A stretch of DNA of 64,000 nt from Escherichia coli (GTDB lineage Bacteria > Pseudomonadota > Gammaproteobacteria > Enterobacterales > Enterobacteriaceae): assembly GCF_003018255.1 (NCBI RefSeq), contig NZ_CP027440.1, one strand, 5' to 3'. Every line of letters begins with the position of its first letter. Positions within the stretch are counted from its first letter, which is position 1. A program made the translations under genes and the position numbers. Positions 49,510 through 50,654 of this stretch are shown one piece after another. The notes below the pieces were generated by a model. That model did no database searches and was not told the DNA's origin. It saw only the letters and a program-made list of their open reading frames with translations.

Positions 49510-49836
49510 ATGAAAAAACTGATTCTCATCGCCATGATGGCATCGGGGCTGGTAGCTTGTGCGCAATCAACCGCACCGCAGGAAGACAGTCGTCTGAAAG
49601 AGGCTTACAGCGCCTGTATCAACACCGCGCAAGGTTCGCCGGAAAAAATTGAAGCCTGCCAGAGCGTGTTAAACGTGCTGAAGAAAGAGAAACAACATCA
49701 GCAGTTTGCCGAGCAGGAAAGTGTCCGCGTACTGGATTATCAGCAGTGTATTCAGGCAACGCAAACCGGAAATGATCAGGCGGTGAAAGCCGATTGTGAT
49801 AAGGTCTGGCAGGAAATTCGCAGTAATAACAAATAA
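49510..49836 (+). CDS. chiQ: lipoprotein ChiQ/YbfN (108 aa)
   Basis: ORF track; lipobox LVAC. Confidence 0.9.
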   Translation: MKKLILIAMMASGLVACAQSTAPQEDSRLKEAYSACINTAQGSPEKIEACQSVLNVLKKEKQHQQFAEQESVRVLDYQQCIQATQTGNDQAVKADCDKVWQEIRSNNK

Positions 49837-49876
49837 GTGAGAGCTGTAACTCTCGCTTTTCTTATTTCCCTTGTAT

Positions 49877-49904
49877 AAAAAAGCCAACCTGCAGGTTGGC
49901 TTTT
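49877..49904. terminator. intrinsic terminator between convergent chiQ and fur
   Basis: Perfect 20-nt palindrome agccaacctgcaggttggct (49882-49901) flanked by an A-run and a T-run. Confidence 0.8.
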
Positions 49905-49919
49905 CTCGTTCAGGCTGGC

Positions 49920-50366
49920 TTATTTGCCTTCGTGCGCGTGCTCATCTTCGCGGCAATCGCCTTCGGCACAGTGACCGTAAAGATAGAGACTGTGGTTAGT
50001 CAGGCGAATGCCATGTTTTGCGGCGATTTCACGCTGACGCGCTTCGATGGAATCATCACTAAATTCGATAACCTTGCCGCAGTCGAGGCAGATCAGGTGA
50101 TCGTGGTGATGTTGCTGTGTCAGTTCAAATACGGATTTACCGCCTTCAAAATTGTGGCGGGTGACGATACCAGCATCGTCAAACTGGTTCAGTACGCGAT
50201 ATACCGTAGCCAGACCAATTTCTTCACCCATATCGATCAGACGTTTGTATAAATCTTCCGCACTGACGTGATGGTTGTCCGGCTCCTGAAGAACTTCCAG
50301 GATTTTTAAACGAGGAAGCGTTACTTTCAGGCCAGCTTTCTTTAGGGCGGTATTGTTATCAGTCAT
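49920..50366 (-). CDS. fur: ferric uptake regulator Fur (148 aa)
   Basis: ORF track; MTDNNTALKKAGLKVTLPRLKILEVL. Confidence 0.97.
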   Translation of the reverse strand: MTDNNTALKKAGLKVTLPRLKILEVLQEPDNHHVSAEDLYKRLIDMGEEIGLATVYRVLNQFDDAGIVTRHNFEGGKSVFELTQQHHHDHLICLDCGKVIEFSDDSIEARQREIAAKHGIRLTNHSLYLYGHCAEGDCREDEHAHEGK

Positions 50367-50445
50367 GCGGAATCTGTCCTGTTACTAAGCGGTTCACTTC
50401 ATTAGGAGAAGTGACAGAATTTGCTCTTGAGATAATGCGTATCAT
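50359..50445 (-). CDS. uof: uof, 28-codon leader ORF translationally coupled to fur
   Basis: MIRIISRANSVTSPNEVNRLVTGQIPHD; its stop TGA overlaps the fur ATG (ATGACTGA). Confidence 0.75.
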   Translation of the reverse strand: MIRIISRANSVTSPNEVNRLVTGQIPHD

Positions 50446-50448
50446 TAT
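50431..50448. promoter_or_regulatory. Fur-box-like palindrome overlapping the uof start
   Basis: gataatgcgtatcattat; mRNA sense ATAATGATACGCATTATC versus consensus GATAATGATAATCATTATC. Confidence 0.55.
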
Positions 50449-50624
50449 AGAATTGCCACGCCTAAATGAAAACCACAAGTCCCTGGCAAATATTGTTAAT
50501 AAAAACGTGGCACAGCTTACATTTACAACGGCAAGGCCACTTGAACACCGGGACATTGTACAGGTACAACAGCAAAAGTTACAAATTTGTAGCAATTATT
50601 TTGATTGGCATTATCTATTAATAC

Positions 50625-50646
50625 GGCGTAGACATGAGTCTACGCC
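50625..50646 (-). other. stem-loop just downstream of fldA
   Basis: ggcgtagac atga gtctacgcc, 9-bp stem, no clear U-tract. Confidence 0.5.
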
Positions 50647-50654
50647 GCATCACA

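Follow-up and report, generated by a model that had tools for sequence, protein, structure and literature searches.

The start codon of uof, the short open reading frame (ORF) that precedes fur in Escherichia coli, is built into the promoter of the fur-only mRNA, and the mapped start of that mRNA lies downstream of the codon. In enterobacteria, iron metabolism has Fur as its master regulator, and uof-fur serves as a standard example of sRNA control through an upstream ORF. We consider it probable that Fur occludes the fur-proximal promoter Pfur, that the Pfur mRNA is devoid of the uof AUG, and that coupling of fur to uof translation takes place only on read-through transcripts and in those lineages that have kept the frame. 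The value that remains lies in the tension between the uof model and the position of the transcription start site (TSS), which leaves the main fur mRNA without the uof start codon.

The DNA analyzed here, a stretch of 64,000 nt (hereafter the window), is E. coli, with 100% identity to E. coli chromosomes upon genome comparison. The 801 bases around the fur leader were found in 5424 of 5426 complete E. coli genomes, in many of them at 100% identity, and the labels given by RefSeq in matching genomes are fldA, "uof: fur leader peptide" and fur, with uof annotated in every sampled row. The region is the well-characterised fldA-uof-fur control region of E. coli, a system already known to which this identification adds nothing new. 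The minus strand from 50445 to 50359 (ATGATACGCATTATCTCAAGAGCAAATTCTGTCACTTCTCCTAATGAAGTGAACCGCTTAGTAACAGGACAGATTCCGCATGACTGA) reads ATG ATA CGC ... CAT GAC TGA and is translated as MIRIISRANSVTSPNEVNRLVTGQIPHD followed by a stop, the same translation as in the sequence-only reading, which had taken this 28-codon ORF to be uof. The identification was borne out by the RefSeq annotation and by the NCBIfam equivalog model NF011344, which the peptide matched over its full length (1-28 of 28) with 81.3 bits against a cutoff of 71; Enterobacter uof (55.6) and Kluyvera uof (34.5) score below that cutoff. The proposed overlap with fur was found as well, in that the uof stop (TGA, 50361..50359), 5 nt into fur, is inside ATGACTGA (50366..50359), whose ATG starts fur. 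In MG1655 the ORF is b4637 at 710639..710725, "RyhB-regulated fur leader peptide" (window coordinates are those of NC_000913.3 minus 660280, a mapping checked on the MG1655 record). The MG1655 and window ORFs share the locus, the 28 codons, the ATGACTGA overlap with fur and 27 of 28 residues. The single substitution is at codon 14 (50404-50406, minus strand), which is CCT (Pro) in the window. MG1655 and E. albertii have TCT (Ser) and another E. coli (L002) has TTT (Phe), so that Escherichia has three residues at this position, each located in the loop of hairpin 1 described below.

Features of the fldA-uof-fur control region in the window (coordinates are window positions)
Feature	Position	Strand	Description
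fur CDS	49920..50366	-	148 aa; annotated; pN/pS 0.03, strong purifying selection
uof ORF, 'fur leader peptide'	50359..50445	-	28 codons + TGA; RefSeq; NCBIfam NF011344 above cutoff
fur translation-initiation block AACAGGACAGATTCCGCATGACTGA	50359..50383	-	invariant columns, 60 distinct leaders
Leader hairpin 1, UCACUUC-UCCUAAU-GAAGUGA	50394..50414	-	MFE and centroid fold; within uof codons 11-18; arms 50414..50408 and 50400..50394
Candidate RyhB pairing site GAGCAAAUUCUGUCA	50412..50426	-	sliding duplex scan, -12.1 kcal/mol; predicted to pair with RyhB nt 37-48, including G44/C45
Fur box / operator TATAATGATACGCATTATC	50431..50449	.	16/19 to consensus; spans -13 to +6 of Pfur
TSS of fur-only mRNA	50436	-	an A; 7 nt past the -10 and 9 nt past the A of the uof ATG
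Pfur, fur-proximal sigma-70 promoter	50444..50472	-	-35 TTTTCA 50472..50467, 17-nt spacer, -10 TATAAT 50449..50444
Puof, upstream sigma-70 promoter	50555..50584	-	TTGTAA-18-TACAAT; promoter scan; transcripts would contain the uof AUG
fldA intrinsic terminator hairpin GCGGCGTAGAC-TCAT-GTCTACGCCGT	50623..50648	-	sequence; RNA 3´ end at 50617

The uof ATG (50445..50443) is located inside a palindrome, ATAATGATACGCATTATC (50448..50431), which the sequence-only reading had described as resembling a Fur box. Extended by one base (50449..50431), this sequence, TATAATGATACGCATTATC, matches the Fur consensus GATAATGATAATCATTATC at 16 of 19 positions and is the sole match with three or fewer mismatches in the window, where 0.00 matches were expected based on 100 dinucleotide-preserving shuffles. 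It corresponds to the known Fur box of the fur promoter, which overlaps the -10 of Pfur-a (PMC7867234); the same paper credits fur autoregulation to de Lorenzo 1988. In a promoter scan, TTTTCA-17-TATAAT was the best sigma-70 match in the region (10/12), with -35 and -10 blocks that hardly vary among 68 Enterobacterales loci. The Pfur -10 hexamer ends with the A and T of the uof ATG (positions -8 and -7), and the uof ATG exists because TATAAT is followed by G. The uof start codon being physically part of both the Pfur -10 and the Fur operator, caution is warranted: only changes at G50443 spare the -10 hexamer, since substituting either of the first two bases of the ATG harms promoter and operator as well.

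Because TATAATGATACGCATTATC holds the -10 hexamer as well as the start site A50436, the Fur box extends across the core of Pfur. Fur-Fe2+ bound to this operator would occlude RNA polymerase, by which Fur would repress its own promoter; we infer occlusion by iron-loaded Fur from the fact that both promoter elements are covered. The arrangement is that of the Fur-autoregulated E. coli fur promoter (de Lorenzo 1988; EcoCyc Pfur-a/Pfur-b as given in PMC7867234), with the Fur box over the -10 and start sites inside uof. Our scan and the TSS determined by SMRT-Cappable-seq agree with the published promoter, and with one of its start sites compared, no difference was detected. The fur promoter of Yersinia enterocolitica (PMC7867234) also has the TATAATGAGACGCA core, a Fur box over the -10 and fldA upstream. 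Unlike the window, however, it is not followed by uof, as its ATG opens only a 4-codon ORF (ATG AGA CGC AAT TGA), which shows that this ATG is kept as promoter sequence, independent of a leader ORF.

The start of the fur-only mRNA is taken from SMRT-Cappable-seq, a method that reports full-length primary transcripts. In this dataset, a unit with b0683 but without b4637/uof has its TSS at 710716 on the reverse strand, corresponding to window position 50436, and on the MG1655 record the A at 710716 follows TATAAT-GATACGC. A Cappable-seq supplement had no entries close to the locus, and the basis for this position is one genome-wide dataset together with database-derived statements in two papers; Pfur has been placed inside uof, with Puof upstream (PMC6191717, PMC7867234). 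With a 17-nt spacer and a mapped TSS 7 nt downstream, Pfur is within the 16-18 nt and 6-8 nt, respectively, by which we recognized a sigma-70 promoter. Since the start lies 9 nt after the A of the uof ATG, the fur-only mRNA cannot encode uof. The sequence-only reading had proposed that the TSS be compared with 50445 and had regarded a start downstream of 50431 as contrary to its model. That limit was not literally crossed, given that 50436 is inside the palindrome, yet the objection it stood for applies, as the transcript is without the uof start codon.

Three promoters feed ybfE-fldA-uof-fur, and the uof-containing units detected by SMRT-Cappable-seq start only at 711521 (PfldA) and 711951 (PybfE). 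The TTGTAA/TACAAT hexamers of Puof are listed as a constitutive 'uof-fur' promoter (Shimada 2014), and Sinha 2018 uses the name Puof for it; SMRT-Cappable-seq called no TSS there. Read-through into uof is partial, because fldA has its own terminator with a strong 3´ end detected by Term-seq (MG1655 710897, window 50617; terminator score 19.7; Adams 2021 supplement). We thus envisage two kinds of fur message. On the longer read-through transcripts, from Puof, PfldA or PybfE, and only on these, uof could be translated, and ribosomes that finish uof at its TGA could reinitiate at the fur AUG; such reinitiation is the translational coupling reported by Vecerek 2007, according to the papers that cite it. 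The Pfur mRNA, by comparison, would carry a RyhB-responsive region and a conserved hairpin, with fur translated from its own conserved ribosome-binding site (RBS).

The sequence-only reading had also suggested that about 20 nt are common to Fur autoregulation, the uof RBS and the reported RyhB target. At the DNA level, the Fur box and the uof ATG do physically overlap, and this part of the suggestion holds. A model in which a single segment of ~20 nt acts as Fur operator, as uof ribosome-binding site and as RyhB target, all on the same nucleotides of the fur message, could draw further on the folding of long transcripts, where the palindrome forms a weak RNA hairpin (-2.1 kcal/mol), due to which the uof AUG is mostly paired (probability of being unpaired, 0.08). 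We nevertheless regard this model as very unlikely. It is already largely refuted by the position of the Pfur TSS, which takes the AUG out of the fur-only mRNA. Nor can the uof RBS be counted as part of the shared segment, since its AUG is absent from the main mRNA and uof is almost without a Shine-Dalgarno (SD) sequence (best anti-SD pairing of -3.0 kcal/mol with a bulge, compared to -6.5 kcal/mol for fldA).

The RyhB target, too, would lie off the palindrome. In published northern blots, RyhB lowered the levels of the short mRNA from Pfur, a promoter described as "located within the uof ORF", in a manner dependent on G44/C45, while the long uof-fur mRNA was not lowered, even though the site is the same on both (Sinha 2018). 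Because the RyhB-sensitive species is the short Pfur mRNA, the RyhB site should be downstream of 50436, a region that contains neither the uof AUG nor the left half of the palindrome. We scanned the leader with the RyhB sequence, confirmed from the MG1655 annotation. Windows starting at 50452-50440 gave values of -4.9 to -8.6 kcal/mol, with no pairing on 50449..50431. The only candidate in the leader scan to use G44/C45 was GAGCAAAUUCUGUCA, which is beyond the palindrome and is no better than chance, but whose position fits RyhB acting on the Pfur mRNA as described in Sinha 2018. In this candidate, G50424 and C50423, within GAGCAA, are predicted to pair with RyhB C45 and G44. The best RyhB duplex anywhere in the leader was -12.8 kcal/mol compared to a shuffle mean of -14.6, and RyhB pairing potential was not conserved across 60 orthologous leaders (mean z -0.39). 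The authors of PETcofold similarly found the published RyhB-uof model not to be predictable, in agreement with our scan. The northern blots point to RyhB pairing downstream of the Pfur start, inside the uof frame but off the palindrome, and acting on the short mRNA. An unrestricted RNAduplex run of RyhB against the whole leader was discarded, as it returned unrealistic duplexes with huge internal loops.

A related arrangement is that of GcvB on thrL, where the sRNA, as cited in PMC7534054, reportedly prevents initiation at a short upstream ORF and thereby represses the gene downstream. In uof-fur, by contrast, the sRNA-responsive transcript on northern blots is without the start codon of the leader ORF, and there is no attenuator terminator between uof and fur. 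We also considered an attenuator of the trpL/thrL type for the fur leader itself. This was rejected given that no terminator-like site was found in 50445-50366, hairpin 1 has no U-tract, and no Rfam leader family matched.

Constraint on the uof peptide was assessed in related genomes. For this comparison we used 80 Enterobacterales fur loci (81 sequences in the counts), which represent 60 distinct leaders. The motif TATAATGAnACGCATT was present in 68 of the 81 sequences, but the fate of the ORF that opens with its ATG varied. It ends at the TGA at +5 in 32 of the 60 distinct leaders (Escherichia, most Citrobacter, Enterobacter, Kosakonia and Kluyvera) and, in the other frame, at the TGA at +1 in seven (Mangrovibacter, Cedecea and one Buttiauxella). 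In 16 leaders it is cut short by a premature stop (S. arizonae, C. sedlakii, Klebsiella/Raoultella, Atlantibacter and Pantoea, the last with 4 codons), and in the remaining five it passes the fur ATG without a stop. Several of the premature stops result from independent 1-nt deletions in otherwise near-identical leaders, and frame-breaking 1-nt deletions were seen in at least six lineages (Salmonella arizonae, C. sedlakii, Citrobacter Awk4, Enterobacter Bisph1, Klebsiella/Raoultella and a Pluralibacter MAG). Yersinia is reported to be without uof (PMC7867234). Even where the ORF is intact, we observed no codon periodicity (entropy of 0.38/0.30/0.40 by codon position), and the pN/pS values of 0.70 for the 28-codon group and 1.01 for the 29-codon group are in the range of the off-frames. 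For fur from the same taxa, the corresponding values were 0.07/0.03/0.79 and 0.03. The UCA codon at codon 6, invoked for MiaB-dependent decoding, is found in only 12 of the 32 intact leaders. The tables of an acid-stress Ribo-seq study contain no entry for uof. Beyond a subset of Enterobacteriaceae, we conclude, uof has not been maintained as a coding sequence.

The five leaders without a stop were of two kinds. In Enterobacter asburiae (L043:1417-1521), the sequence is ATGACAGAC, in which the +5 TGA is lost (ACA codon) and from which the upstream ORF would run out of frame into fur. In Enterobacter sp. R1, Buttiauxella izardii, Buttiauxella agrestis and Dryocola (L054, L055, L057 and L060), the ATG of TATAATG is in the fur frame with no stop between, and, if transcribed and used, would add ~23 residues to the N-terminus of Fur. 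The tolerance of an in-frame ATG in these four leaders suggests that the ATG is rarely translated there.

The fur gene starts with ATGACTGA in 78 of the 81 sequences, and, because ATGACTGA has TGA in both off-frames, any off-frame upstream ORF ends on the fur start automatically. In an alternative reading, uof would be a nonfunctional, accidental ORF generated by two independently constrained sequences, TATAAT+G of the promoter and ATGACTGA of the fur start. The regulatory content of the Pfur transcript would then lie at the RNA level, in a hairpin plus a site for sRNA/Hfq. This would be in line with the lack of purifying selection on the peptide, the recurrent frame-breaking deletions, the in-frame ATG of the four leaders above, the four codons in Pantoea and reported absence in Yersinia, the missing SD and downstream TSS, the scarcity of the UCA codon, and the occurrence of S, P and F at codon 14 within the hairpin loop of Escherichia strains. 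We still hold it to be unlikely. It conflicts with published experiments, known to us through citing papers, according to which Vecerek 2007 reported translation of uof and a dependence of fur translation on it. In addition, 5381 of 5424 E. coli genomes have a leader of >=99% identity, and ORFs ending at either TGA of ATGACTGA recur in separate lineages. The ATG frame also stays open as far as fur in more of the 60 leaders than the +2 frame does (44 compared to 24, a difference confounded by shared ancestry), which could reflect some selection for an open upstream ORF.

We noted that codon 2 of fur is ACT in 78 of the 81 sequences, which keeps ATGACTGA even in genera without uof. ACT is not a preferred Thr codon in E. 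coli. The T of this codon may alternatively be maintained because it pairs with the A of the ACAGGA SD block, as in the invariant CAG/CUG pairs returned by RNAalifold (below), or because of constraints on the initiation region.

What is conserved in the leader are three near-invariant blocks, namely the -35 region, TCTATAATGAGACGCA and AACAGGACAGATTCCGCATGACTGA, the last of which holds the fur SD (AGGA, 50380..50377), the fur ATG (50366..50364) and a TGA in both off-frames (+1 and +5). Per-sequence folding further revealed, in ~50 of the 60 distinct leaders, a hairpin whose distance from the invariant ACAGGA is the same, with stems that differ between them and show compensatory changes, for example CACUUC/GAAGUG, UACUUCC/GGAAGUA, UUGCUCC/GGAGCGA and GCCC/GGGC. 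In a covariance-model alignment of hairpin 1, 90.3% of cells were paired, and five of the eight pairs had changed on both sides (19 cells). The covariation score was 0.200, compared to 0.126 +/- 0.012 for shuffles (0 of 500 reached it) and <=0.065 when the 3´ partners were slid; this alignment was fitted to the model, and the alignment-free folding of individual sequences supports the hairpin independently. RNAalifold on a MAFFT alignment did not recover hairpin 1, since leaders of different length classes have the 5´ arm out of register; its output was limited to three invariant pairs (CAG/CUG) near the fur SD that are uninformative as to covariation. A search against Rfam returned no family in the fur leader and two sub-threshold chance matches elsewhere. 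The possibility that the fur SD is more hidden on long transcripts was rejected, as its probability of being unpaired was 0.28-0.29 in all three transcript forms. Selection in Enterobacterales has kept the promoter/operator DNA, the leader hairpin (50414..50394) and the fur ribosome-binding block, and not the uof peptide or its frame.

Term-seq data for MG1655 (Adams 2021 supplement) contain a very abundant RNA 3´ end at window position 50365 on the minus strand, the U of the fur AUG (MG1655 710645; scores of 137086 and 180817 in two conditions). It exceeds the 3´ end at the fldA terminator (47785), was scored as neither a Rho-dependent nor an intrinsic terminator, and is flagged 'uORF', though it is not discussed in the text of that paper. 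Together, the TSS at 50436 and this 3´ end would define a 5´ UTR fragment of ~72 nt. A more radical interpretation, which we put forward as doubtful, is that the dominant fur mRNA, starting inside uof and lacking its AUG, is the target of RyhB, that the hairpin near the presumed RyhB/Hfq site is conserved rather than the ORF, and that the textbook model of an sRNA acting through an upstream ORF is largely beside the point in vivo. The ~72-nt fragment (50436..50365), presumably stable, could then act in its own right, for instance as a RyhB decoy, although this last part is pure speculation.

At the other end of fur (49877-49900, minus strand, and 49829-49910, plus strand), its terminator (GCCAACC-TGCA-GGTTGGC followed by a T-run) was missed by the consensus terminator scan. 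It appears to be common, back-to-back, to fur and the convergent chiQ, and a plus-strand Term-seq 3´ end, listed as antisense to fur, is found near it at MG1655 710187. A sub-threshold Rfam match to the sRNA STnc370 at the fur terminator (27.9 bits compared to a gathering threshold of 54; E 0.37) is probably due to chance.
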